From Reclinomonas americana ATCC 50394 (taxonomy: Eukaryota), in assembly GCA_048213135.1 (NCBI GenBank), contig PS015439.1:44356-64355 (forward strand): a stretch of 20,000 bases of DNA, in the 5' to 3' direction. Of the stretch, positions 1 to 20,000 are shown piece after piece. A program made the translations under genes and the position numbers. A model generated the notes under the pieces. The model made no database searches. It was not told the origin of the DNA and was given only the letters and a program-made list of their open reading frames with translations. Position 1 is the stretch's first letter; every line of letters begins with the position of its first letter.

Positions 1-42
1 GTTATTGCTGTGTGCTCACGGTTTGGAGGGCCTGGGGGTTAG

Positions 43-809
43 TGTCGAGGAGCTGGTGGCGTTTGTGTACAATTTGCATTTCCACGCCACCGAAGTCATT
101 ATCAAGGAGCACTTTACAAAGGTGTGTGGTCGCTGAAAGGGCGGCTGGATTGTTTCCGAGATTGCTTACGAAAGTTGTTTGTGTCGCGCAGCTCGGGTGC
201 CGAGTCAAGGAGGTCCGTTTGATGCGCAATCACTACGGCAAGTCGCGCGGTCACGCGTATGTGGAGATGGAGGACAGAGTTGCGTTCTCACCCCTGCAGT
301 GCCCCCTGCTCACGTGTTTTTTTGTGTCTGGCTCACCTCCTATCGACAATGTGTGCAGGAGAGTGTGCAACGCGCCATCGCCACCGACGAGAAGGAGTCG
401 CTGTTGAATCGCCCGCTGCGTGTCGACGTGTCGAGGACAGATGTGCGAGGAAAGCACAAGGATGAGAACAGTGAGCAGGCGGGGGCAGCGGCCGCAGGAG
501 GCGCATCCGGCCGTGGCGATGCACCGTTTACCGTCAAGTTTCGTGTGCATGTGTGTGTGCCCGAGTCAGTTACCTGCTTTGTTTGCGTGCTCATTTCTCA
601 TGTCGGCGTGCAGACATGGCCGTGGCGGTCATTTGGTGCCTCGTGCCGCGCGACTCGCACCCGTCATCCTGCCGAAGCGTGCACGCGTGGATGCCAGCAA
701 CACCGAGAGTGGCAGTGGCACAAGTGACGCACCGGCTGCCAGTGCCGGTGAGACGGTCGACAGCAAGCCGCGCTCCAATGCCGAGTTTGCAAGCTTCTTG
801 AAAAAGTGA
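43..809 (+). CDS. SART3: 3' part of a U4/U6 snRNP recycling factor (Prp24/SART3-like): RRM plus C-terminal LSm-interaction motif; 5' end lies outside the window
   Basis: Exons 43-121, 192-278, 359-537 and 614-809 join through GT-AG introns to give VEELVAFVYNLHFHATEVIIKEHFTKLGCRVKEVRLMRNHYGKSRGHAYVEMEDRESVQRAIATDEKESLLNRPLRVDVSR...KPRSNAEFASFLKK*. RNP2 (AFVYNL) and RNP1 (RGHAYVEM) are present. The terminal SNAEFASFL resembles the SNxxFRxxF LSm-binding tail of Prp24/SART3. Confidence 0.8.
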
Positions 810-919
810 ATGGACTGCATGCAACGAACGCGAGTCAAAAAGGAAGAGTTGCTCGTTTAAATGAGTCCGCACAACGGAGGTGCGAGCAAAAGAAAGTGAG
901 GGGAGAAAATACTAGAAGT

Positions 920-925
920 AATAAA
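920..925 (+). promoter_or_regulatory. Possible polyadenylation signal (AATAAA) for the SART3-like gene
   Basis: AATAAA lies about 110 nt after the TGA at 809, in the 148-nt space between two convergent stop codons. Confidence 0.3.
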
Positions 926-957
926 AATCGTCGAGAGATTACGGGGGGCGATGCAGC

Positions 958-5404
<4,447 letters not shown>

Positions 5405-6148
5405 CTTGTGCAGGTGTGCATGCGTGTGTATGAAGGAAGAGGCAAAGTGTGCCGGGAAGAGATGAATACTAAGAGAGAGAGAGAGCTGGGAGAATGCTTG
5501 CGACGTTTCGAAAACAAGCTGTAAAATGCCAGTGCGTCGCTAACGGTGGTCGGGCTTTGTAGTGGTGCATCTACAGACTATCTTCCACATGCTAAGCATA
5601 AGCGAGATGCATGTCGGGAAAGTCCAGATAATTCGACTTCGCACCGAATTCTGCGTTTTTTCCCGTTTCTTTCCACGTCACCTCACGTAATCAACGCTGC
5701 TGTTAATGCTGCGGCTGGGCTACCGTACAACTGCGCAGACCATGTATGTTATATTACCGTGTCCTGCCGCAAAACCGGACAAAGACCGCTGCCCTGGCAG
5801 AGCGCGCGATCGATATCTCTGCCTCTCTCTCTCTCTCACACACACACACGCATTGTGCGCGTTGTCTTGCAACACATAGGTAAGCATCGCACACACGCAC
5901 ACGCACAGACAATCGCAGACACACACAGAGAGAAACAGACGCGCGTGTCTGGATTTCATTTTTTTTCGCACACACACACAGAGATCAACCCTCTCTCACC
6001 AAGATACAACGCATCTGCACACACGACAATGCACACACCGCGCACGAAAACAGCAGAGATAGATAGACAAAGTAGACGAGGACATGGCCGCGCACATCAC
6101 CACACTCACCACACCACGCAGCAGTCATCAACATACAAGTGAACAAGC

Positions 6149-6411
6149 ATGAGCGGCCCGCCTCCTCCGCGCGTCTCTGGGCTGGCCAGCGCGCGCGGCA
6201 CTGGCGGCAACCTCTCTCGCGCATTCAGTGCCGCCGCGCACGCTGCCTCGAGCTACTCTGCCTCAGCGGCAGCAGGAGGAGCGTCTCCCATGTTGCCTTC
6301 TCAACCGCCGCCGCGACAACGGCCGCTGGTGACGGTGCCGCGATTGGAGATGTCGCGGGTGTATGGATCGGCGGCGGCGGCGCCTAGTGCGGCCGCCTCG
6401 TCGGGTTATGC
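6149..6411 (+). CDS. Probable first exon of a hypothetical gene with an Ala/Ser/Pro-rich N-terminus; remainder lost in or after the gap
   Basis: ATG at 6149 gives MSGPPPPRVSGLASARGTGGNLSRAFSAAAH...PRLEMSRVYGSAAAAPSAAASSGY. The block is GC-rich and coding-like, and ends at GC|gttgcgt (6412), followed by CT/GT-repeat intron-like sequence. Confidence 0.55.
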
Positions 6412-6575
6412 GTTGCGTACTTCTTGGTGGGGCTCGCTTTCTCTGTCTCTGTCTCTGTCTCTGCCTGTGTGTCTGTGTGTGTCACTCTGTATGTGTGATG
6501 ATTGATTGTGGGCATTCGCGATACTGATTGCGGTGCTCTCTGCGATTGACGGACCTCTTTCCCGCCCGTTGATCG

Positions 6576-6617
6576 CTCTCTCTCTCTTTCTCTTTCTCTC
6601 TCTCTCTCTCTCTCTCT
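6576..6617. repeat. (CT)n microsatellite running into gap
   Basis: ctctctct tract. Confidence 0.9.
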
Positions 6618-7394
6618 NNNNNNNNNNNNNNNNNNNNNNNNNNNNNNNNNNNNNNNNNNNNNNNNNNNNNNNNNNNNNNNNNNNNNNNNNNNNNNNNNNN
6701 NNNNNNNNNNNNNNNNNNNNNNNNNNNNNNNNNNNNNNNNNNNNNNNNNNNNNNNNNNNNNNNNNNNNNNNNNNNNNNNNNNNNNNNNNNNNNNNNNNNN
6801 NNNNNNNNNNNNNNNNNNNNNNNNNNNNNNNNNNNNNNNNNNNNNNNNNNNNNNNNNNNNNNNNNNNNNNNNNNNNNNNNNNNNNNNNNNNNNNNNNNNN
6901 NNNNNNNNNNNNNNNNNNNNNNNNNNNNNNNNNNNNNNNNNNNNNNNNNNNNNNNNNNNNNNNNNNNNNNNNNNNNNNNNNNNNNNNNNNNNNNNNNNNN
7001 NNNNNNNNNNNNNNNNNNNNNNNNNNNNNNNNNNNNNNNNNNNNNNNNNNNNNNNNNNNNNNNNNNNNNNNNNNNNNNNNNNNNNNNNNNNNNNNNNNNN
7101 NNNNNNNNNNNNNNNNNNNNNNNNNNNNNNNNNNNNNNNNNNNNNNNNNNNNNNNNNNNNNNNNNNNNNNNNNNNNNNNNNNNNNNNNNNNNNNNNNNNN
7201 NNNNNNNNNNNNNNNNNNNNNNNNNNNNNNNNNNNNNNNNNNNNNNNNNNNNNNNNNNNNNNNNNNNNNNNNNNNNNNNNNNNNNNNNNNNNNNNNNNNN
7301 NNNNNNNNNNNNNNNNNNNNNNNNNNNNNNNNNNNNNNNNNNNNNNNNNNNNNNNNNNNNNNNNNNNNNNNNNNNNNNNNNNNNNNNNNNNNNN
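6618..7394. other. Assembly gap (N run)
   Basis: N bases. Confidence 1.
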
Positions 7395-10300
7395 TTGGCA
7401 ATACCAACTGACCAGCCACAGGGAACTGATGGAAGGAGCCGCCAACGCGCACAAGTCGCAGATTGACCGTGTTGACCTCTGGCCAGTTGCACATCCACAC
7501 CGGATGGTACACGTCATGACGAGTGAGCACCAGGTGCGGGATCGGTTCCACCACGGTAATAGCGCGTTCTGCGAGGCGCACACACCGAGGAAGTCAGTCA
7601 AACACCCTTCAAGAAAAGCACCGGCTCGATTTCTTGCCGTACCGACAAGCACCACCGAGAAAACACCAAAGACACCATCGTCGAGCACGATGGTAAACTC
7701 GACCGTCTCCGAGGCCGCCAGCGACGGAATAATGGCCGTGGATACGAGGTCAACAGGCGGTGACGACGGGACGTTCCACCAAACGCCATTCCTGAATGTG
7801 CCGTCACAAACGGTGGCGCGATCCACACTGACTGCCACCGTAGTGCTCGTGCTATTGGAAGAAGGTCGCTGCTGGAACAGCAGGTCGACATTGGCCGTGA
7901 CCACGGTCGGATTCTCGCACGACCACATCAGCGAGAGCGGTTCCTGACCGTAGTATGCCACTGTATCGATGAAAGCACACATGTTGAGTGCGACATCGCC
8001 ATCAATGCCAATCTACGAAAGTGAGGAACCTGGCATTGCCGACGAGGCCAGACGCGTTGTGCCAAGCATTTGCAGCTGAATGGTTGACATGAACAGCAAG
8101 TTGGCACTGATCGTGGAGAACGGATACCACGTCGACGCGTGCCGCACACACAGCTGCAGCCGACGGGCTACCGATGCAGGCGCGCTGCCGAGGGTGTACG
8201 GCACCTGCGAGATACGAGGTGAATCTAAACGTGCAACACCGAGTTTCAATCCACGAAGAACGCAACCAGCAGTCGACTGCCACCCCCACTGGGCACACCA
8301 ACAGTGCCTACTGCCACACCGGTGGCACACGAGTCGGTGGCGGCCACAATTTGGAAGCGCTCTCGGTCGGCATTCAAGTTGACACCCATCACTGTCAGTG
8401 TGTACCACTCGTTGTCACGGTTGACACGGTGCGACGGTAAATTGTCCACCGACACTGTGAGCAACGGACGTGGTGAGAACACAACACTCCGCAATACTCA
8501 ACTACCGCATGAATCGCCTCACCCAGCTGCAACGCAGTGTTGTCTGCCACTGCGCCCCACTGCACTGCGGGATCGGCGCTGGCCGGTCGCATACATACGT
8601 GGTACGCCTGCGCTGTGGCAGTTACGGGAATCGTGACTTTCACCACCAATGTCGAGGGCACACCGCTCGCATCCAGTGTTGTGGCCACGACGTTGAGCAT
8701 GGAGGGCACCAGCGGGGCAGCCGGACTGCAGTCCACGTTCCACGGAACCACCGCCACATCCGTACCCACCGTCAAGTTGATGCCACTGATGGTGACGCTG
8801 ACGGACGAGAGCGAGAACGTGGCAGGAACGGTTAGCAGGCGAGGAATCGCCACGGGAGTCAGCGCCGTCGGCCGAGCTGCGAACAGTGCAATAGTCAGAC
8901 ATCCTCATCCAGCCTTCGACGTACGGGACAAATACGTGACATACCCAAAGTAATGACATTCAGTCCAGCACCAGCAGCCGCGCCGACTGGTGTCCACGCA
9001 AATGCGGGATTGGCAGCTGCCGAGTTGCGTATGCACAGCTGCAAAGCCGCTGGTGCACCGGGAGATGGAGTTGTCGACGAAGTAACGGCCACCCGCAGCA
9101 CGAGTTGGGTGGACGAACTGGTGGCCGCATCCACTGTGACAGAGCCGACGGGGACTGTCGATGCGCTCGAGCACGACGAATCGGCTGCCACCAAGGCAAA
9201 CGAATCGCGCGAGGCGTTCAGGAACAGACCCGGGACGACGAGTGTCTTTGCCAGGCTGTCAGTGACCATCAGTGTTGGCGATACGGCACCCGTCGACACT
9301 GAGGAAGAGAAAGGGAGAAAAAGTCAACAAACAAGTGATAAAAGGCGGCATGACATGTCAACAATGCAGACCGAGGATCAGCTGCTGGCCAGGTGCAGCA
9401 TCGCCAAACTGCGCACTGGCACTTCCACCCGGTTTAATGCACACCCTGCGCGCACCAAGACAGTGCATGAGTGGATTATGCACATGTACCTATCCTTGCA
9501 CACCACCAGCGCAACTTATACACCCCGGCCGTCAGCGGGAGCGCCAGCGTCAGCGTAGCTGAGGAAGGTGGCGAGGTGACGACCGTGGTAGTGATGGCGG
9601 CAGCCGGACTGCTACCAGCAGGCATGGTGCACGTAGTCGACGGAAGAGCCACCACGTACTGATCGGCGGCGTCGAGGTGTGCGCCAACCAGCTGCACAGA
9701 GAGTGGCGATGTGCCGATAGAAAGAACATTGGGGACAATCGACGAGATCACCACTGCGAGAATGATCGTAAGTTATTTCAGCACGCAAACACGCTCGGGA
9801 GGGGATCGACTTTTTGTCGTACCTGCGGTGACATCGCCGTTGCTCGCCACTGGCGTGAACTCAACAAATGGCGTGCCGACATTGACCTGGATACACATGC
9901 GCAGGAATGTGCCGTTCACCAAGTCGGCTGGTACTGGCACCGTGACCAGCAACTCAAGGGACGTGTCGGTTGGTCCAACAGGATCCACTGCACAGCGCGA
10001 ATGAGCAACGCATCAGCAGAAAACGTGCAAAATGTGGTCACTTCCTCACCAGTGATAGCGCCGACAGTAGCGCCGCTGGCACATGTCGTCGACCGCAGCA
10101 CCAACTTGAACATGTCACGTGCCTTGTTCAAGCCATTGCCTTGAACGGTGATGCGCTTCGCTGATCCGTCAGCAACAACGGCATTGGGAATCAGTGCAGC
10201 CGCGCGCACTGTGCAAGAAATCAACAGGACTGCCAAGACCAACACAAGACTCATATGCTACTACGCACCGATTGACAAGCTGGTCGTACCCACTTGCGTG

Positions 10301-13300
10301 TACGGCGAGACACCGTCCACCGAGAAGCACACGATGTCTGCACTCGATGTGAGACACACACGCACGCCACACCGCACTCGGTAGAAGGTGCACGCAACAG
10401 CTGCCGGTCGGAATGGGACCTGGAGTGACACCCAGCGGCAACGATGCTGCCTGCGAGACCACGGTGGTCGAGGTGAGAGGAATGCCGGAGCCGTTGCAGG
10501 GAGCCGTGCTGGTAGACTGTAGCTGGAAGAACTGGGTGCTTGCCAGGTTTGTGCCGACAACAGTGAAGCCACTCGACAATGTGTCAGTGGCCGCCGTGGC
10601 TGGTAAGAATCCAGTGGCAGCGACTGCGCGCGGCGGCAATGGAAAGCTGCTGTTAGCGCTGCCAGCATACGCGACTCGCACGAGAAGAAGAGAATGAGAA
10701 CGAAACTGGCGGCAATCACAAACGTCTTCTGGAACGAAGCGCCACCGCTGTCGGTGACCCGAATGGTGACTACAAGATTGGAGGCTGTCTGTCCTGCTGC
10801 TGTGATGCGTAGCTCAGGTGGCACGGCCGCGTTGCTGATGTTGAACAGTGCATCGCCCTGGCCAGGCACGATGGAGTACACGAAAGAATCTTGCGAGTTG
10901 GCATCGACTGCTGAGAGTGTACCGAGCACGAAATTGTTGGTCAAGGTAGGTGCCACATAATACTGCTTGCTGAGTCCAATATTTGTGGGAGGCGAGTTAC
11001 CTGCACGCATTGGGTGTAAGGGAAGACGAAAAATAAGGATTGCGAGTCAGAGTCATCAAAGAATGAGAGAGAATAGGAAAGGGGTAGAGGTGACGAGAGA
11101 GGGGAGAGCAACAAGATTGCAAAGCAAGAACAAACGAAAAGACGCAACTTTCGCTGATGGTGAAAACTTCGTCTCGGAACAGGCCGGCGCTGTCGGTGGC
11201 GCGAACAATCACGCTCAAGTTGTTTCCCACCTGACCAGCGTTGCGCACTACCAACGTGGAACCGACGATTGCGAAGAGATTCATATTGGCGCCACCGACC
11301 AGCGAGAACGTTGCAATATCGGTCACGTTGTCGTCAAGCACCGTGAGATTGCCGACGGGTGTGTTGGGAGTGGTAGACGCAGGTGTGTAGGAGTACGACG
11401 ACATCAGAACGGCCCGTGGCGGCACCGGAACTAGTGATGAAGCGGTGAGGAAAAGGAAATGTAACAGCGGTGAGGAAAAAGGGAGATGTAACAGAGGTTG
11501 AAGACCGAGCTACGCACCATCAGTGACGACAAACTCCTTGTCGAGTGATGCCGGGCCGAGAGTATCCGTGACGCGCTGTTTCCATGCAGTCAGTCCATTG
11601 CCATCATGCACGACCACATAATCCCCTCCAAAGAACAACCAACGCACCACAATGACATGCAGGTTGGTGCCAACCTGGCCGGCGTTCACCAGCACCAGAT
11701 TGGCACCGAGAACGTTGAACAGCGTTGAAGACGACCCGCCGACAATGGAAAACACGTGCGCCTCCGGAGGCGAAGAATTGGCATCAACCACAGAGAGTGC
11801 ACCGATGACGGTGTTCGTCGTCACAGTAGCCGGCGTGTACGTGGAGGACGACAGAGAGAGAATGGTGGGTGGCACATTTTCTATGGAGAATAGAATATAC
11901 ACGATGTGAGTTGTTGCCACACCAACATGCACTCACGAGCGAGCGACGCACGTTCGGTAACCGTCAGTGTCGAATCCAGAATGCCACCAGCGCTGTCAGT
12001 GGTACGCACCACCAGCTGCATACCGTAGCCTTTAACACCAGCTGACGAAATGCGGAGCTGATTGCCAAAGACTGCGACACAGGGCCTCATTGGNNNNNNN
12101 NNNNNNNNNNNNNNNNNNNNNNNNNNNNNNNNNNNNNNNNNNNNNNNNNNNNNNNNNNNNNNNNNNNNNNNNNNNNNNNNNNNNNNNNNNNNNNNNNNNN
12201 NNNNNNNNNNNNNNNNNNNNNNNNNNNNNNNNNNNNNNNNNNNNNNNNNNNNNNNNNNNNNNNNNNNNNNNNNNNNNNNNNNNNNNNNNNNNNNNNNNNN
12301 NNNNNNNNNNNNNNNNNNNNNNNNNNNNNNNNNNNNNNNNNNNNNNNNNNNNNNNNNNNNNNNNNNNNNNNNNNNTAATGGCGGTGGGTGGCACGGGCAC
12401 TGCACAAAAAGTAGCTATAGTGAGGGAGTGGGAGAGCAAGGTGGCGACTGCTGGCGAGCACCGACGCAACAGTCGTTGATGACAAAATTGCGGTCGGAGA
12501 AGCCGCCAACCGAGTCCGTCGCTCGAATCTGTGGCGCCACAAAAAATGTCAGTCACAAGGACGCAATGCTGCAACCACACTCTGGCTCTTCTTCGTCAAA
12601 TTACCGTGAGAGTCAAGGCAGTGCCGCGCTGACCAGCCGCCACAAAGGCCAACTGGGGTGGCATCGTGGCCAGCACGGTGAAGAGGGCACCAGAGCCGCC
12701 AGGTCGCACGGTAAATGACACAGTTTGGCCAGTGTTCACATCCACAGCACTGAGAATGCCAATAGGCTGCAGGGCGCTGGTGGTCGGTGGAGTGTAGGTG
12801 TTGTTGCTGAGGGAGATAGACGTCGGCGGCACGTTGGCTGTTGGAAAATGCGTCAGGGAGCAATCATCAACGCAGGAGACAAGCGGAGGGATTTCGCAGA
12901 CCTTCGTTGATTGTGAAGGTGGACGTGATGGAAAGACCGCCCGAGTCGGTGGAACGCACTTGCACCAAAAGGCCATTACCGGAGAGTCCCGTGGTGGCCA
13001 CCAACAGGCGATCGTTGCTGATGCTGAAGGCCAGCTGATTGGCACCGCCGACAATCGAGTACGTAAATGTCTCTCCGGTATTGCTGTCGGTGGTCGTCAG
13101 CTGACCAACAGTGGCACCCACCACGCCCGGCGGCGTGTACAGTTGCGGTGAGAGTGCAAGTGCCGTTGGTGGCACATTGGCTGGCCATGGCGCGAGAAAT
13201 CATGATCAGAAACAACAATCAACAAACACCAGCAGGCGGTGACCACCGACCTTCATTGAACGTCAGCGTCTGCACCGCGCTCCGGCCAGTGTTGTCCGTC

Positions 13301-16300
13301 ACCTGCACACAGCAGTCAGCACAAAAGCAGCGCACTTGGACACGGACAATCCTGCAAACTCACCTGCACAACCACCTGCAGTCCGTTGCCCGTCTGACCC
13401 GCAGAGCGGAGAACCAACTGGTTCCCTTGCACATCAAACAAGGCGGCCGAAGCGCCACCCACGATTGAGAACGTGAACGNNNNNNNNNNNNNNNNNNNNN
13501 NNNNNNNNNNNNNNNNNNNNNNNNNNNNNNNNNNNNNNNNNNNNNNNNNNNNNNNNNNNNNNNNNNNNNNNNNNNNNNNNNNNNNNNNNNNNNNNNNNNN
13601 NNNNNNNNNNNNNNNNNNNNNNNNNNNNNNNNNNNNNNNNNNNNNNNNNNNNNNNNNNNNNNNNNNNNNNNNNNNNNNNNNNNNNNNNNNNNNNNNNNNN
13701 NNNNNNNNNNNNNNNNNNNNNNNNNNNNNNNNNNNNNNNNNNNNNNNNNNNNNNNNNNNNNNNNNNNNNNNNNNNNNNNNNNNNNNNNNNNNNNNNNNNN
13801 NNNNNNNNNNNNNNNNNNNNNNNNNNNNNNNNNNNNNNNNNNNNNNNNNNNNNNNNNNNNNNNNNNNNNNNNNNNNNNNNNNNNNNNNNNNNNNNNNNNN
13901 NNNNNNNNNNNNNNNNNNNNNNNNNNNNNNNNNNNNNNNNNNNCCAGCACTTGCAGGTTGTTCCCCGACTGGCTGGTGTTGACGAGGCGTAGCTGGTTGC
14001 CGGAGATGTAGAACAAACTGGCATCGGCACCGCCAACAATCGAATAGGTGAATGTCGAGGCTGTGTTCGCGTCCACGCCTTGAAGGATGCCAACCACTTG
14101 CCCTGGCGTCGGATCCAGTGGCACATATGATGTGCTGTCCAGCAGGAGGTTGGAAGGCGGCACATTGGCTGCGTGAATCAACCATCACGACATGTCAGCA
14201 CTGGAAACGATCGATATCGAGGAAGCGCATCAACGAGAACAACGCACCCTCGTCCAACACAAATGGCTGATCCACAAAGTTGCCGGTGGAGTCTGTCGAT
14301 CGTACCACCACCTGCAGTCCGTCACCGCGTTGCCCAGCGTTCTTGAACACCAGATTGCCATTGACAACATCAAAGAGGGCAGCGTCGGCGCCGCCAACAA
14401 CCGAGTAGGTGAACGAGTCAGTCGCGTTGGAGTCAGCAGTCGTCAGAACGCCGACCACCGCATTGGTTGAGGCGGTGGGTGGCACGTAGGTACTGGAGGA
14501 GAGCGACACCGACGTAGGTGCCACGGGTACTGCGAGGGAGAGCAATGTGAGTCTCCCAAGGCTGCGTCACATGTCAGTCAATCATCGACATACCATCGTT
14601 GACAGTGAACGGCACATCGAGTGAGGCACCGGCCGTGTCGGTGGCTCGCACAATCACGGACAGATTGGTTCCCGTCTGACCAGCATTACGCAAGCACAGC
14701 TGATTTCCAATGATGGTGAACAGCGCCTGGTTAGCACCGCCAACAATGGAGAACGTCGCCGTGTCCCAGGCATTGAGGTCGGTGGCGCTCAACGTGCCCA
14801 CTGGCTGATTCGCAGCCAACGTGGCCGGCGTGTATGTGTTCGACGAGAGAGAGATGCCGGAAGGAGCAACATTGGCTGCGAACGGGTAACGAAGGTTCTG
14901 TCTGTGTCAGTATCGCGTCACTCTCCGTACAAGGGACACGATCAACTCTAGCACACCATCACCGAGAGACAGCGTTGTATCCACTGTTCCACCACGGCCA
15001 TCATCTGTTCGCACAATCACCTGCAGGTTGCGTCCACTCAAGTTTGGCACAGCGGTGCGGATCTGCGATCCAACAACAGCGAACAAGGCCGCATCGGCGC
15101 CACCGACTCTGCAGACAGACAAGAGCGGGTGAGTGATGTGAACTTGCATCGAAGAAATGTCGTCGAGCACAATGTCGCAACATGGAATAGGTGAATAAGT
15201 CGCAGCAGTTTGCATCAACGCCTGCCAATGTGCCGACAACGGTGCCGGCAGGAGACAGCGGTGCAACGCCGGGAGACGAGATAGTGACACCAGCTGGCGG
15301 CACGTTCACTGCGCAAACACGCACAGCATAAAGATGAGACACACAAGATGTTCTTCTTCATCTCTTGAATGTCACTGACCTTCGGTAATGACAAATGACT
15401 GCGTGGTGGAGAGGCCAGTGGCGTCGGTCACTCGCACAGTGACTGGCACATTGGTACCAGTGGAGCCAGCCGAGAGCCACACCAACTGATTGCCACCGAC
15501 AACACCAAAGATGCCGCCGCCAGTCACCACGCTGAATGTGAATGCGGTGTCGAGCACATTGGGGTCGATGGCGGACAGGGTGCCAATTACTTGATTTGGC
15601 ACCACCGTCGGCGGCACATACGAGGTCGAGCTCAACAGCACGCCGGTCGGTGGCACGGGCACATCCGTGATGACAAACACGTGGTCGACAGAGGCTGATG
15701 CTGAATCCGTAGCTCGCACCGTGACGGAGAGATTCGCGCCAGTGAGTCCCGCCGACGTAATTCGCAGTTGGTCGCCACTAATGTTGAAGAGGGAACCGGA
15801 GCCACCCGGCAGGATCGTGTACGTCACCGTCTGACAGCAGTTGGCGTCGACAGCGGACAGTGTGCCAACCACGGTATTGGCAGCTGCCGAAGGTGGCGCA
15901 TACGTTGCCGGCGACAACGAGATGCTCGACGGTGCCACGTTGACTGCAATAACAACGTGAGCAACGGGTGCGCAAGGATGGCGGGGAGCAGCACATCGCA
16001 CCTTCGTTGAGGAAGAAAGTGGTGTCTTGTGAGCCGCCGTTGCCGTCACTCACGCGAACAGTGATGATGAGGTTCTGCAACAATCCACGTGAGCAAGGGT
16101 CACACACTCTCTTGCAGCCGCGTGAATATATACACACCATGCCGCTCAGCACCAGCGTCTGCACGCGCAGCTCATTACCAGCAACACCACCAATCTGCAC
16201 ATAGCACACAATCAGAGTCGCGCGACACCAACACAGCGAATGACAGACAGAGCGCAACGTAGAACTTGGAGTCATCGTCATTGCCAATGAGAGTGTACGA

Positions 16301-19300
16301 AAGACTCTGACAGCAGTTGGCGTCGGTGGCCGACAACACTCCAATCAAAGCATTCTGCAAACTACGTGGAGCATAGAATGTTGTCGACAGCGCCAGGTTT
16401 GCTGGTGGCACGTTGGCTGCAGAACAAATACAATCAGTGGATAGCAGGCGCGTAGAATCACGTGCAACTGAGAATACCTTCGTTGATGCTGTGCGCGGAG
16501 AGAGAGAGAGACACACGGAGACGCACGTTGAGAAACAAAAGATAGATGCAAGAATCAAAATGAGAACCACAAATCTCCGCGACAGCACACGCACGTAAAT
16601 GTTGTCTGCAGAGTTCCACCACGACCGTCGGATACTTCGATGCGGATGCGCAGGTTGTTGCCAGTCTGCCCGGCCAGTGCCAGCGATAGCGTCGACCCGC
16701 TGAGCACAAACAGCGACTCGTTGAAGCCGGCGACAACCGTGTACGTGTATGAGCCCAGCGTGTTGGCGTCGACGGCGGTGAGCGAGCCCACCACCACTCC
16801 GGCGGTGGGAGTTGGCGGCACATATGTGTTGGAGCTTAGCACCAATGCCGACGGCGGCACATTCACTGTGCGTACGGACGAGTGAGATGACATACAACAG
16901 GCATGATCGACAGAGATGTGGGACCTTCAGTGATGGTGAACAGCTTGCGGACCCAGGCACCGGCCGCGTCGGTCGACTGCACTTCGACCTGCAGTGGATC
17001 ACCACGAGAGTTTGCGGCGCTCAGTCGTAGTTGTGTGCCGTTGATGTTGAACATGGCAGAGTGCGGGCCGCCAGAGATTGCTGCATTGACATTGACAAGA
17101 TCACGATCATGTCAGTCTCAAATCACAGATGGTCACCCCACACAATTGCAATCCATGCACGCAGCAGTAGGTGAATGTGTCACCAGTATTGATGTCCAAC
17201 GTGGTGAAGAAGCCCACCACCACATTCGCACTCGAGGTCGGTGGAATGTATGTCGTGCCCCACAAAATAATGTCACTTGGTGCCACGTTGACTGCAGTCG
17301 ACCAATCACCCATCAGTCAGTAAGGCACACTTTGCAGTGTACGAGCTCGTCGGTCATTTCCGCAACACACACCTTCGTTGACAGTAAACGTGCGGTCCAA
17401 TGAGGAAAATCCATCAGAGACACGAATGGTGACCAGCAATCCAGTGCCCGACAAGCCACCGGGAACATTGGCAAGCAAGTCGGTGCCGGAGACCGCAAAC
17501 AGACCCTGGTTTGCGCCTCCAACACTGCATGATAGAGGGGATCAGCCGGCAGGCACACGAGAAGGTAAGCAGCAAAGAAAACACGGCTGGTCGTTGCGCA
17601 ACATGGAGTAGGTGTGTGACTGACAACAGTTGGCGTCGATCACAAACAGAGAGCCAATAACTGATCCCTGTGCCGCTGGCGGCACGTACGTGGATGGCGA
17701 CAGCAGAAGATCACTCGGCGGCACATTAGCTGCGCAACAAGAAGTGAACCACACGCGCAGCAGATGTGCTAACCCACCGCCGGCAACACCAACCTTCAGT
17801 GATGGTCAGTGTCTGGTCGACAGAGCCGCCCGCGCCGTCGTCGGCGTGCACAATCACGGTGAGAGGCGACGTGTTGAGAGTGGCAGCTGCAACCACCAGC
17901 TGGTCTCCCGACACGGAGAACTTGCTGGCATCAGGTCCACCAACACTGACAAAGAAGACTTGCGTGAGAACGAGATCGCAGGACGCGCCAGCTCAACGGT
18001 GAACGCACATGGAATAGGTGAACGATTGACAGCAATTGGCATCCACAGCCGCCAGCGTGCCAACGACCGTGCCCAACGGTGACGGCGGTGTGTATGTCAT
18101 CGACGACAAGGTCACCGCCGTCGGTGCCACATTGGCCTCGTCCAGCACAAATGTCTGGTCTCGAACACCACCTGCGCCGTCATCGACACGCACAACAATG
18201 CTCAGACTGTTGCCGGTGAGCGGGCCGCCACTGCTGTCGACCACCAGTTGGTTTCCAGAGATACTGAATCGAGACGCAGCAGCGCCACCAACAATCGAGT
18301 AGGTCATGCTCTGACAGCAGTTTGCGTCCCTGTGGTGGCGTGCAGAGTGAGGATTACACGAACCCCAGATGGACCATGAGCAATCATGAGTGCAAACGCA
18401 CGTGGTCGAGAGCGTGGCAACGACGGTGCCAACGGGTGCGGGTACCGGCGAGTACGTGGTGGTGGAGAGTGCCAGTGCGGACGGAGGCACATTGGCTAGC
18501 GACAGACTAGATGAGCGACACAGACACAAGAAGGCAGAGAAGCACATGCACGCACCTTCGTTGACGGTAAACGTCTTGTCAAAGTGCGCGCCAGACGGAT
18601 CACTGACTCGGACGGTGACTTGCAAATTGTTGCCCTGCTGGCCTGCGTTGCGGAGTACTAACTGCGAGCCGACAATGTCGAAGAGAGCACTATTCGCACC
18701 ACCGACGATAGACAGTGACAGTGCGTCGTTCGCATTGCCATCGACACCAGTGATTGTGCCCACCACCGTATTGGCAGCGGGTGTGGGTGGTGCGTAGGCC
18801 GACGAGGATAAAAGTACGTCGGTCGGGGTCACGGGCACTGCAAGCGACCGAGAGAGTGAGCAGCGACTCTCTCTGCAAACACCAAATATCGTCACTCACC
18901 GTCGTTGATGGTAAAGAACTTGGCCAGCGTTTGTCCACTGGCATTGGTTGACAGCACCTGCACTTGCAGACCGGTACCTCGCTGTCCCGCAGCTCGAATT
19001 ACCAGTTGATCCCCAATGACCGAGAACACAGCAGCATCGGTTCCGCCCACCACGGCGTAGGTGTAGGGTGAAGAGGCAGATGTGTCGGTTGTGGAGAGCG
19101 TGCCAATCACCGTATTCGCGGTCGAGGTCGGTGGCGTGTAGGTGGTCGAGGATNNNNNNNNNNNNNNNNNNNNNNNNNNNNNNNNNNNNNNNNNNNNNNN
19201 NNNNNNNNNNNNNNNNNNNNNNNNNNNNNNNNNNNNNNNNNNNNNNNNNNNNNNNNNNNNNNNNNNNNNNNNNNNNNNNNNNNNNNNNNNNNNNNNNNNN

Positions 19301-20000
19301 NNNNNNNNNNNNNNNNNNNNNNNNNNNNNNNNNNNNNNNNNNNNNNNNNNNNNNNNNNNNNNNNNNNNNNNNNNNNNNNNNNNNNNNNNNNNNNNNNNNN
19401 NNNNNNNNNNNNNNNNNNNNNNNNAAACGACAAGTTGTGCGAGTGTATGTGTGTGTGAATGAACACCTTCGCTGATGACAAATGAACTTGTGGTTGAGCC
19501 ACCGGCGCCGTCGCTGACCGTCACTGTTACTTGCAGGCCGTTGCCAGTGAGACTGGCCACGTTGGCACGGAGACTGTTGCCGCTGATATTGAACATGGAC
19601 TGATTGGCGCCTCCGGTGACGGCGTACGTCAGCGTTTGACCCGTGTTCACGTCGCTTGCCGAGAGCAGGCCAATGACACCGTTGAGTGCCAGCGGAGGAA
19701 TGTACACGTTGGTCGAGAGGGTGGGAGCAGTTGGAGGCACATTGGCTGCGATTCACGTGAGTATGGCAAACATGATACGCACAATGGCAGTGCGAGTCAC
19801 CTTCGTTGATGAGGAAAGTGCTCGAGTTGCTGCCACCAGCGCCGTCGGAGACAGTGACCGTGACTTGCAGGCCGCTGCCGGTGAGGCCCGCGACAGCAGA
19901 GACAAGATCGGAACCGACCAGAGAGAAGGAGGCCTGCGCGCTACCGCCGGTGATGGTGAACGACAGCGTCTGCCCAGTGTTCACATCGGTGGCGGCGATT
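7395..20000 (-). CDS. Giant extracellular/cell-surface protein: about 23 tandem cadherin-like repeats, then six IPT/TIG-like repeats and two further Ig-like modules; both termini missing
   Basis: 42 inferred introns join exons into one frame, apart from three gaps and one ambiguous base near 12078. Exons include 20000-19801, 19745-19467, 18837-18556, 18495-18402, 18329-18009, 17945-17794, 17729-17603, 17524-17373, 17291-17166, 17080-16925, 16865-16595, 16488-16478, 16416-16259, 16194-16138, 16074-16002, 15943-15380, 15308-15182, 15108-14957, 14875-14594, 14529-14248, 13180-12902, 12837-12605, 11880-11648, 11430-11149, 11000-10707, 10623-10399, 10337-10269, 10208-10050, 9987-9823, 9753-9516, 9445-9372, 9298-8945, 8876-8523, 8454-8267, 8204-8030, 7960-7676, 7568-7395. 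Confidence 0.88.
8030..10623 (-). repeat. Six IPT/TIG-like Ig-fold repeats, each with two conserved Cys
   Basis: Each unit has P...T(V/I)xGxNL...C...(Y/L)x(V/L/M)C, e.g. FTVVGTNL..APC..YIVCF; ITVQGNGL..TTC..LRMCI; VQLVGAHL..TTC..YKVCI; VVPGLFL..SSC..LQLCI; TISGINL..VDC..YHVCM; TVMGVNL..DSC..LQLCV. Confidence 0.6.
11441..11492. repeat. Imperfect 25/27-nt tandem duplication inside an intron
   Basis: agcggtgaggaaaaggaaatgtaac followed by agcggtgaggaaaaagggagatgtaac. Confidence 0.85.
12094..12375. other. Assembly gap (N run)
   Basis: N bases. Confidence 1.
13480..13943. other. Assembly gap (N run)
   Basis: N bases. Confidence 1.
16478..16488 (-). CDS. 11-nt micro-exon of the cadherin-repeat gene
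   Basis: cgcacag|C ATC AAC GAA G|gtattc restores the consensus ...TFT-INE-ANVPP between introns 16594-16489 and 16477-16417. Confidence 0.8.
19154..19424. other. Assembly gap (N run)
   Basis: N bases. Confidence 1.

Follow-up and report, generated by a model that had tools for sequence, protein, structure and literature searches.

The 5′ splice sites (donors) of a 20,000-nucleotide (nt) stretch of the Reclinomonas americana ATCC 50394 genome (contig PS015439.1, positions 44,356 to 64,355), here called the window, include a large putative class reading GTTGCG, the GTGCG form that is also found there displaced by one base into the intron. The window is eukaryotic and dense in introns. Its G+C content is 55-62% outside five N gaps (4316-4551, 6618-7394, 12094-12375, 13480-13943 and 19154-19424), and it holds four genes on both strands:

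1..809, plus strand: 3′ part of an RRM-protein gene; 3 donors; open frame ending in FLKK and a stop codon
958..4741, minus strand: coiled-coil gene; 14 donors; 741-amino-acid (aa) open model without stops up to its stop codon
ATG at 6149, plus strand: first coding exon of a fourth gene; one donor (6412)
7395..20000, minus strand: giant gene, both ends beyond the window or in gaps; 42 donors

The giant gene encodes tandem cadherin-like repeats of ~94 aa each, followed by beta-sandwich-like modules without family assignment. Gene models were rebuilt without scoring donor motifs beyond GT/GC. A repeat profile hidden Markov model (HMM; 94 positions, 30 hits) was made from the window's own translated open frames, and between neighbouring hits all frame-keeping GT/GC-AG pairs were listed and ranked by the fit of their residue count to the HMM coordinates. 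In nearly every case the candidate with an HMM offset of 0 was unique, and the junction peptides were as expected (NE-(A/V)-NVPP, TYS-I-VGG). The remaining junctions, outside the repeat HMM, were read from the frames and from module homology. An unsupervised coding-potential dynamic programming scheme (no donor scoring) and a greedy first-acceptor chain each misplaced many boundaries in this GC-rich DNA and were replaced by the repeat-HMM anchoring and manual reading. Translation of the giant gene gave four blocks of 159, 1287, 253 and 1167 aa with no stops. The rebuilt models contain 60 donors, about one intron per 200 nt of coding sequence in the window. The original prediction, made from the letters of the window, had counted 62; its distribution of them over four genes on both strands stands. 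Both intron ends are visible in 57 cases, and for three donors (19466 and 4741 on the minus strand, 6412 on the plus strand) the acceptor is hidden in or beyond an N gap.

Offset donors and the last base of the exon

Donor form in these models follows the last base of the exon (position -1). Where this base is A, C or T (21 donors), 16 donors are of the one-base-offset type and five are GTGCG (18401, 18008, 16594, 11951 and 3604), with no GTGAG and no other form; this is the predicted split, reproduced by independent models. Where it is G (39 donors; 41 had been claimed), the offset type occurs once, as GTTGCG at 8266, the same single case as in the prediction, and the others are 7 GTGCG, 6 GTGAG and 25 of other form. 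The 16 non-G offset donors comprise 12 GTTGCG, two GTTTCG (538 plus, 10706 minus), one GTTGAG (1154 minus) and one GCTGCG (17165 minus). Every motif that had been listed, including all 13 GTTGCG, lies where it had been placed. The offset type makes up 17 of all 60 donors (28%), in line with the proposed share of roughly a quarter of introns, and is tied to the absence of -1 G. The donors are listed below together with one comparison intron; a slash marks the exon-intron boundary and a caret the splice junction in the peptide.

279..358, plus strand: intron with A/GTTGCGT, 80 nt, RRM gene; the 279>359 splice keeps the RRM frame (VEMEDR^ESVQRAI); CTCAC lies 23 nt before the CAG acceptor
538..613, plus strand: intron with A/GTTTCGT, 76 nt, RRM gene; frame open to a stop at ~807; in-frame alternative donors at +15 and +27
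6412..6417, plus strand: donor-like C/GTTGCGT closing the first coding exon of gene 4; motif present, acceptor in or beyond the N gap 6618-7394
1088..1154, minus strand: last intron of the coiled-coil gene, A/GTTGAGT, 67 nt; acceptor 1087 gives VQS-D-VDEERRQ through to the stop
2069..2137, minus strand: intron with T/GTTGCGT, 69 nt, coiled-coil gene; in the 741-aa open model; in-frame alternative at -6 (A/GTGGAT)
3024..3099, minus strand: intron with T/GTTGCGT, 76 nt, coiled-coil gene; acceptor 3038 is frame-compatible too, donor unaffected
4736..4741, minus strand: donor-like T/GTTGCGT after the short first exon of the coiled-coil gene; motif present, phase 1 fits acceptor 4075 in our reading
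8205..8266, minus strand: intron with G/GTTGCGT, 62 nt, giant gene, the sole offset donor with -1 G; SRLL^VPYTLG...LQLCVRH matches neighbouring modules
9446..9515, minus strand: intron with A/GTTGCGC, 70 nt; AGVY-K-VCIKPGG; two acceptors listed; the module motif Y-x-V/L-C is preserved in our reading
10338..10398, minus strand: intron with T/GTTGCGT, 61 nt; PTGS-Y-IVCFSVDG; within the open 1167-aa block
10624..10706, minus strand: intron with A/GTTTCGT, 83 nt, following the last cadherin-like repeat at the homologous phase-1 site; repeat HMM ends (position 92) at 10711
11001..11148, minus strand: intron with A/GTTGCGT, 148 nt; top candidate, HMM offset 0 (FTISE^SNSPPT)
12400..12470, minus strand: intron with T/GTTGCGT, 71 nt; FVIND^LPVPPTAI parallels the uninterrupted ITD-V-PVPPT in exon 15378-15941
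15109..15181, minus strand: intron with T/GTTGCGA, 73 nt, TYS/IVGG site; FTYS^IVGGADAALF; the sole same-phase alternative is a GC at +3
16195..16258, minus strand: intron with C/GTTGCGC, 64 nt; SKFY^IGGVAGNELRV; within the open 1287-aa block
17081..17165, minus strand: GC-AG intron with T/GCTGCGT, 85 nt, TYS/I site; top candidate, HMM offset 0 (FTY^SISGGPHSAMF); a single acceptor fits
17525..17602, minus strand: intron with T/GTTGCGC, 78 nt, TYS/IVGG site; top candidate, HMM offset 0 (HTYS^IVGGANQGLF)
17946..18008, minus strand: comparison intron with unshifted T/GTGCGT at the same TYS/IVGG site; FTYS^IVGGPDASKF, HMM offset 0

The association between offset type and the -1 base is strong by Fisher's exact test, both over all 60 donors (p = 2e-9) and over the 57 complete introns (p = 2e-8). 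It is found for the cadherin-repeat donors placed by repeat-HMM coordinates (n = 30; 7 of 11 non-G against none of 19 G; p = 1.6e-4), in the giant gene alone (p = 1.4e-5), and in the 18 donors of the other three genes (7 of 8 non-G against none of 10 G; p = 2.5e-4). A strong intron-side motif, GTGCG or offset, is present in 21 of the 21 non-G donors and in 8 of the 39 with -1 G (14 of 39 if GTGAG is counted). The -1 G donors have A at -2 in 20 of 39 cases. In non-G donors the GCGU core is placed at +3 to +6 or, three times as often, at +4 to +7, and position +7 is T in 13 of the 17 offset donors, which is expected if the entire GCGT block is displaced by one base. The conserved G is preceded by C in 20 of the 21 non-G donors, compared with 7 of the 13 -1 G donors of GTG[AC]G type, and none of the 21 reads GT[AG]AGT, the form that pairs best with standard U1. 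A T at +3 also occurs in 6 of the 39 -1 G donors and by itself is therefore not restricted to the offset class. G/GTTGGT donors are found at 17788-17793 and 2807-2812, both on the minus strand.

Several positions had been considered pinned by frame and repeat homology, and repeat homology does place at least six donors: those at 17602, 17165 and 11148 are top candidates with an HMM offset of 0, while those at 15181, 12470 and 16258 restore the repeat consensus. At the TYS/I site, where -1 is T throughout, the four donors read GTGCGT, GTTGCG, GCTGCG and GTTGCG. At the paralogous phase-1 site after a repeat, donors with -1 G are loose (GTGACT, GTGTTC, GTCCCA, GTATTC, GTCAGT and others), and the four non-G donors read T/GTTGCG, A/GTTGCG, A/GTTTCG and C/GTGCGT. 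The third of these, at 10706, has a phase-1 position identical to that of the introns following NE-G. In effect, the paralogous repeats are a natural experiment on donor choice against the -1 base. Outside the repeats, the donor at 1154 has no other same-phase GT donor within 45 nt, the candidates there being three GC sites only (-45, -42 and -9).

The motif is highly specific for donors. Among 1307 sense-strand GT sites in the gene spans, GTTGCG occurs 16 times, as a donor in 13 cases, within introns in three and in exons in none (p = 4e-16). All 9 occurrences of GTTGCGT are donors, compared with 9 of 17 for GTGCGT. In the 11,403 nt of spliced coding sequence GTT[GT]CG is absent, against a codon-shuffle mean of 6.76 (P = 0.001), and on the antisense strand of the same sequence it occurs 8 times; for GTTGCG alone the count is 0 against 2.75 expected (P = 0.067). 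Such exclusion from exons is as expected of a potent donor. On the sense strand of exons GTGAG is under-represented as well (4 against 10.9 expected; P = 0.0145), and GTGCGT is not (3 against 3.0 expected).

It could be argued that some boundaries have been misplaced, or that the pattern is peculiar to this locus and no genome-wide code. The boundaries were drawn from sequence alone, frame-compatible alternatives lie near every offset donor, three donors have no visible acceptor, and 42 of the 60 come from one repeat gene. This account is nevertheless very unlikely. The pattern is present in four unrelated genes on both strands, at least six sites are fixed to the codon by repeat homology, that 13 introns should all have the same 6- to 7-mer where the frame allows a donor lies far beyond chance (the p value given above), and the motif is avoided in exons. 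The GTTGCG-class donors are very probably real.

Apart from their donors, the offset introns appear to be ordinary short U2-type GT-AG introns. The 57 complete introns start with GT in 56 cases and with GC in one, and all end in AG (CAG in 52, TAG in 5). A branch-like CT[CGA]A[CT] lies at -36 to -7 in 46 of the 57, compared with 43 of 358 exon windows of 30 nt, and the G+C content of the introns is 52%. All 15 complete offset introns end in CAG; a branch-like CTNAY is seen upstream, and their median length is 73 nt against 65-72 nt for the rest. Removal of the introns gives a continuous frame and an HMM offset of 0 at the repeat junctions. Two other intron types were considered and rejected. 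The U12-type branch motif TCCTTRAY is present in 0 of 57 introns and no tabulated donor reads RTATCC. Introners or repeat introns were sought by all-against-all blastn of the 57 introns, which gave just three hits of 13-16 nt, with nothing shared beyond the donor.

Some neighbouring sites deserve mention. On the minus strand, tandem donors of the same phase lie 6 nt apart at 17361-17372, G/GTGTGT at 17372 and T/GTTGCG at 17366. Use of the latter would lengthen the product by two residues (NEGV-F-NVAPSD); it may be the true donor or an alternative to 17372. An 11-nt micro-exon at 16478-16488 on the same strand, between introns 16489-16594 and 16417-16477, gives the -INE- of a repeat end (TF-TINE-ANVPP); a 20-nt version ending at a CA/GTTGCA donor (16468) is frame-compatible too. 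In the coiled-coil gene, a (GA)n microsatellite of ~140 nt within 4560-4735, together with an N gap, lies just downstream of the putative first-exon donor 4741. The candidate intron from 4741 to 4075 would cross both this run and the gap 4316-4551, and would be ~666 nt long against 55-148 nt for all others.

Pairing with U1 and the choice of register

Pairing of the donors with the 5′ terminus of the small nuclear RNA (snRNA) U1 was modelled with ViennaRNA duplexfold, with U in place of pseudouridine and proteins ignored; class energies are given as medians in kcal/mol. The textbook U1 5′ end was taken as AUACUUACCUG, as printed in Table 2 of Tan et al. (2016; PMC4856993), and a G5 variant as ACGUAC, with G at position 5, as reported for Mastigamoeba balamuthi. 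With the textbook end the non-G offset donors reach -0.6 and the non-G GTGCG donors -1.4, against -5.7 to -10 for the -1 G classes. In the canonical register, the modelled pairing of the 16 non-G offset donors with the textbook end is poor, as for shifted-register sites, and in the optimal duplexes G+1 pairs with C9 in just 2 of the 16, at energies near zero. With the G5 variant the corresponding medians are -4.2 for non-G offset donors, -7.3 for non-G GTGCG donors and -6.8 to -12.3 for the -1 G classes. U+3 pairs with A7 of this variant in 13 of the 16 non-G offset donors and U+2 in none (unpaired in 15, paired with A3 in 1), which in the model points to a shifted arrangement and not to a bulged one. 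A hypothetical U1 end complementary to the offset motif gives -10.3 for the offset class and -3.8 for the loose -1 G donors; such an end would account for the 16-to-5 excess of the offset form over the unshifted one but would be a bad match for the loose donors. The most conserved donors are thus modelled as the poorest partners of standard U1, suggesting an altered U1 or a different reader in this organism.

The -1 base bears on the register as well. A G at -1 is present in 1 of the 17 offset donors, against a neutral expectation of 26.8% (P = 0.036) and against 7 of the 12 GTGCG donors, from which the offset class differs clearly (P = 8.5e-6). Its scarcity fits a shifted register, in which -1 G no longer faces C9 of U1.

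The donors fall into two classes known from other eukaryotes, an exon-side class, AG/GT with a near-arbitrary remainder, and an intron-side class used where the exon does not end in G. The intron-side signal is here a block (U)GCGU, which follows the G at once in 5 of the 21 non-G donors (GUGCGU) and stands one base further on in the other 16 (GUUGCGU). The following mechanism may be proposed. The offset form would be read by U1 in a register displaced by 1 nt, with U+3 opposite A7 and GCGU opposite positions 6-3; the intron's G+1 would then lie opposite C9, the usual place of the exonic G-1, and U+2 would be mismatched. Cleavage would still occur before GU, set later by U6/U5. Given the poor pairing of GCG with textbook U1, this organism's U1 may have another base at position 5 and/or 6, or recognition may be assisted by a further factor. 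That the offset donors are read by U1 in such a one-nucleotide-shifted register is, on the duplex model, the best of the readings considered and a serious possibility, although we would not call it probable. The original prediction had already put forward this register. It gains from the extent of the motif to +7 and from the single -1 G among 17 donors, and loses from the textbook U1 duplex, whose median, whatever the register, is -0.6 kcal/mol. Dependence on -1 G is itself confirmed; it equals the known split consensus (see below) and alone is no evidence for a shift. The accompanying suggestion of an altered snRNA gains weight, since the textbook U1 5′ end scarcely pairs with offset donors in the model.

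A bulge offers another way to accommodate the extra base. Here G+1 and U+2 would pair with C8 and A7, one U (+2 or +3) would be bulged, and GCGU would pair with positions 6-3, so that the donor is GUGCGU with a one-base insertion. GTGCGT (18008) and GTTGCGT-type donors (17602, 15181) do stand at the same homologous site and differ by the gain or loss of one T, with no effect on the reading frame, and a bulge at +2/+3 is among the registers described as validated in human (Tan et al., 2016; PMC4856993). In a bulged duplex, however, -1 G would still pair with C9, and its frequency should match that of the GTGCG donors (7 of 12) instead of being 1 in 17 (P = 8.5e-6). The nearest-neighbour model never chooses the U+2-A7 pair for non-G offset donors, and a bulged site should be weaker, and hence rarer, than an unbulged one, whereas the counts are 16 against 5. 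We consider the bulge unlikely.

A second or altered U1 snRNA, whose 5′ end is directly complementary to GUUGCGU, would make the offset class the canonical partner of that snRNA. Binding to textbook U1 is predicted to be almost nil, the complementary end gives -10.3 for offset donors against -3.8 for loose -1 G donors, so that two readers fit better than one, and the motif is highly donor-specific and excluded from exons. Entamoeba and Mastigamoeba, moreover, are reported to possess co-evolved U1 5′ ends (Roy and Bowser, bioRxiv 10.1101/2022.06.08.495308). On the other side, an Rfam search of the 20-kb window for RNA families, including snRNAs, gave 0 hits, the known co-evolved U1s replace the standard one and do not coexist with it, and Mamiellales and Thecamonas are described as keeping standard U1 despite atypical donors. 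A directly complementary U1 is accordingly rated as improbable.

The UGCGU block might instead be read mainly by something other than U1, for example a protein that recognises the sequence, or U6 through its ACAGA region once hand-over has taken place, and act as a position-tolerant intronic enhancer beside a minimal GU. That the conserved G follows a C so much more often in non-G donors (20 of 21) than in -1 G donors of GTG[AC]G type (7 of 13) cannot be explained by standard U1. The textbook U6 box has no G for that C either, and we know of no candidate protein. The intron-side class of the split consensus has been attributed to U6 rather than to U1 (Parker, Fica and Simpson, 2025; PMC11732430), while the fixed spacing of 0 or 1 nt resembles helix geometry more than it does an enhancer. 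We give this explanation little credence.

To return to U1 in the shifted register, a number of points weigh against it. Textbook U1 forms no stable helix with offset donors in any register (range -4.9 to +0.7). With the G5 variant the offset donors are weaker than the non-G GTGCG donors (-4.2 against -7.3), yet three times as frequent (16 against 5), an excess that simple U1 thermodynamics does not explain. Thecamonas and Mamiellales prefer +4C yet retain standard U1 (Roy and Bowser, bioRxiv 10.1101/2022.06.08.495308); an altered U1 is thus no necessary consequence of +4C. All the donors come from four genes in a single 20-kb window, one of these a tandem-repeat gene, and donors at homologous repeat positions of the giant gene share ancestry and are not independent events. 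Outside the cadherin repeats, every offset donor has in-frame alternative GT/GC sites within 45 nt, so that frame alone does not fix the donor, and recurrence of the motif itself partly guided donor choice. Donor 8266 has an equally frame-compatible alternative of the same phase at 8254 (C/GTGGAT).

In its most far-reaching form, the shifted reading would become a dual-register or dual-U1 code, with two 5′ splice-site grammars in one major spliceosome. N/GUUGCGU donors, at about a quarter of introns, would be served by their own U1 variant or by a remodelled U1 that pairs the intron's G+1 where the last G of the exon normally pairs. The chance that this holds is, in our judgement, slim. If offset reading is true, what is a rare oddity in human would be a routine splice signal here, for about a quarter of introns, and a one-base-offset donor would be the commonest strong donor of a lineage. 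It would then offer a natural system for the register freedom tolerated by U1/U6 and for how the cleavage site is set when the recognition helix is displaced, as well as a test of snRNA co-evolution with splice signals. In practical terms, about one in four introns of this genome would be overlooked or wrongly placed by gene-finding programs that had learned just one donor matrix.

Proteins encoded in the window

The repeats of the giant gene score 21.4 bits against Pfam Cadherin, below the cut-off of 28.8, and its database relatives carry PF00028. A word-index protein search with a 188-aa exon gave 43 matches of at most 45% identity, of which the named ones are bacterial or metagenomic. In a HMMER scan of library representatives the best 150 were all distant (in tblastn against the window, short segments with no more than 60% identity), and among the ten best relatives the organism names given are bacterial only. 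An ESM Atlas search gave cadherin clusters only, and a metagenome scan gave 5 distant loci (L001-L005), which were not used. No copy of the giant gene's own product was found in the protein libraries searched. The closest relatives with a name or organism are thus bacterial or metagenomic giant cadherin-like proteins, and a bacterial origin of the repeat type is possible.

Past the last cadherin-like repeat, the giant gene (7395-10623, minus strand) encodes about seven modules of ~100 aa with a Y-x-V/L-C motif, for example LQLCIRN, AYHVCMRP, LQLCVRH and YKVCIKP. A Pfam search of these modules gave no match; our impression, and only that, is of Ig/IPT-type beta-sandwich domains. The coiled-coil gene has no Pfam match, and its 143-aa exon has no homologue in the word-index protein search. 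The RRM gene scores 19.4 bits for RRM_1, just under the cut-off of 20.7. The C-terminus of its product (614-809, plus strand) reads SNAEFASFLKK before the stop, which we take to resemble the LSm-binding box of Prp24/SART3-type U4/U6 recycling factors.

Comparison with known splice-site systems

Shifted and +2/+3-bulged U1 registers have been validated in human cells, where validated noncanonical registers are given as 1.5% of 201,541 sites (Tan et al., 2016, NAR; PMC4856993). The shifted register was described by Roca and Krainer (2009) and the +2/+3 bulge by Roca et al. (2012), both as related in Tan et al. (2016). The donors of the window resemble human shifted-register sites in having a strong consensus one base into the intron, G+1 at the U1 position of G-1, and cleavage at GU. 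They differ in frequency, at 17 of 60 donors against the human 1.5% for all validated noncanonical registers together. They differ also in sequence: the human test oligonucleotide has an AAGU block that pairs continuously with U1, whereas the GCGU found here pairs poorly with textbook U1. The human register was tested in cells; the present one is proposed from sequence and a duplex model. With the +2/+3 bulge the donors share an extra U right after GU, followed by an otherwise consensus block. In human such bulges are rare, with 54 updated sites at +2/+3 and 36 at +3 among the 201,541 (Table 3 of Tan et al., 2016), and a bulge would not lead one to expect the scarcity of -1 G in the window.

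In animals and plants it is established that the exon side and the intron side of the donor compensate for each other, a relation now described as a split consensus, AG//GUNNN against NN//GURAG, with seesaw linkage as another name (Parker, Fica and Simpson, 2025, Open Biol; PMC11732430). The window shows the anticorrelation of -1 G with intron-side motif strength that is expected of it: the 39 -1 G donors, 20 with A at -2, are loose on the intron side, and a strong intron-side motif is present in every one of the 21 non-G donors. Such a dependence on -1 G was therefore already known; what is new is that the one-base-offset motif forms a major class. Unlike the split consensus as described, the intron-side motif is here GUGCGU or GUUGCGU and not GURAG, and it occupies two positions one base apart. 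No GTTGCG or GUUGCG donor class was found among the top-ranked literature matches.

Donors with C at +4 are described from several lineages, namely Mamiellales (GYGCGY, AG/GTGCGT), Ostreococcus (GTGCGTG), Thecamonas, and Mastigamoeba (GUGCGC). The descriptions of these donors that were consulted do not mention a GTTGCG form. Similarities to the window include the GTGCG(T) core, occasional GC donors and the CTGAC/CTCAC branch motif. Mamiellales (outside low-GC regions) and Thecamonas are however described as intron-poor, and Mastigamoeba as having 2.5 introns per gene, in contrast to the dense introns here. Mastigamoeba also prefers C at +6. The BOC1 introns of Micromonas are described as AT-rich (<43% GC) and without a branch motif, which the introns of the window, at 52% GC, do not match.

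The closest precedent for a changed U1 comes from Entamoeba and Mastigamoeba balamuthi, whose reported co-evolved U1 5′ ends are AACAAAC and ACGUAC, respectively, the latter matching +4C donors (Roy and Bowser, bioRxiv 10.1101/2022.06.08.495308). As in those organisms, the window has an atypical donor consensus that standard U1 is not expected to pair with. There, as reported, a single U1 fits a single consensus, in the canonical register, whereas the donors of the window would place two registers side by side.

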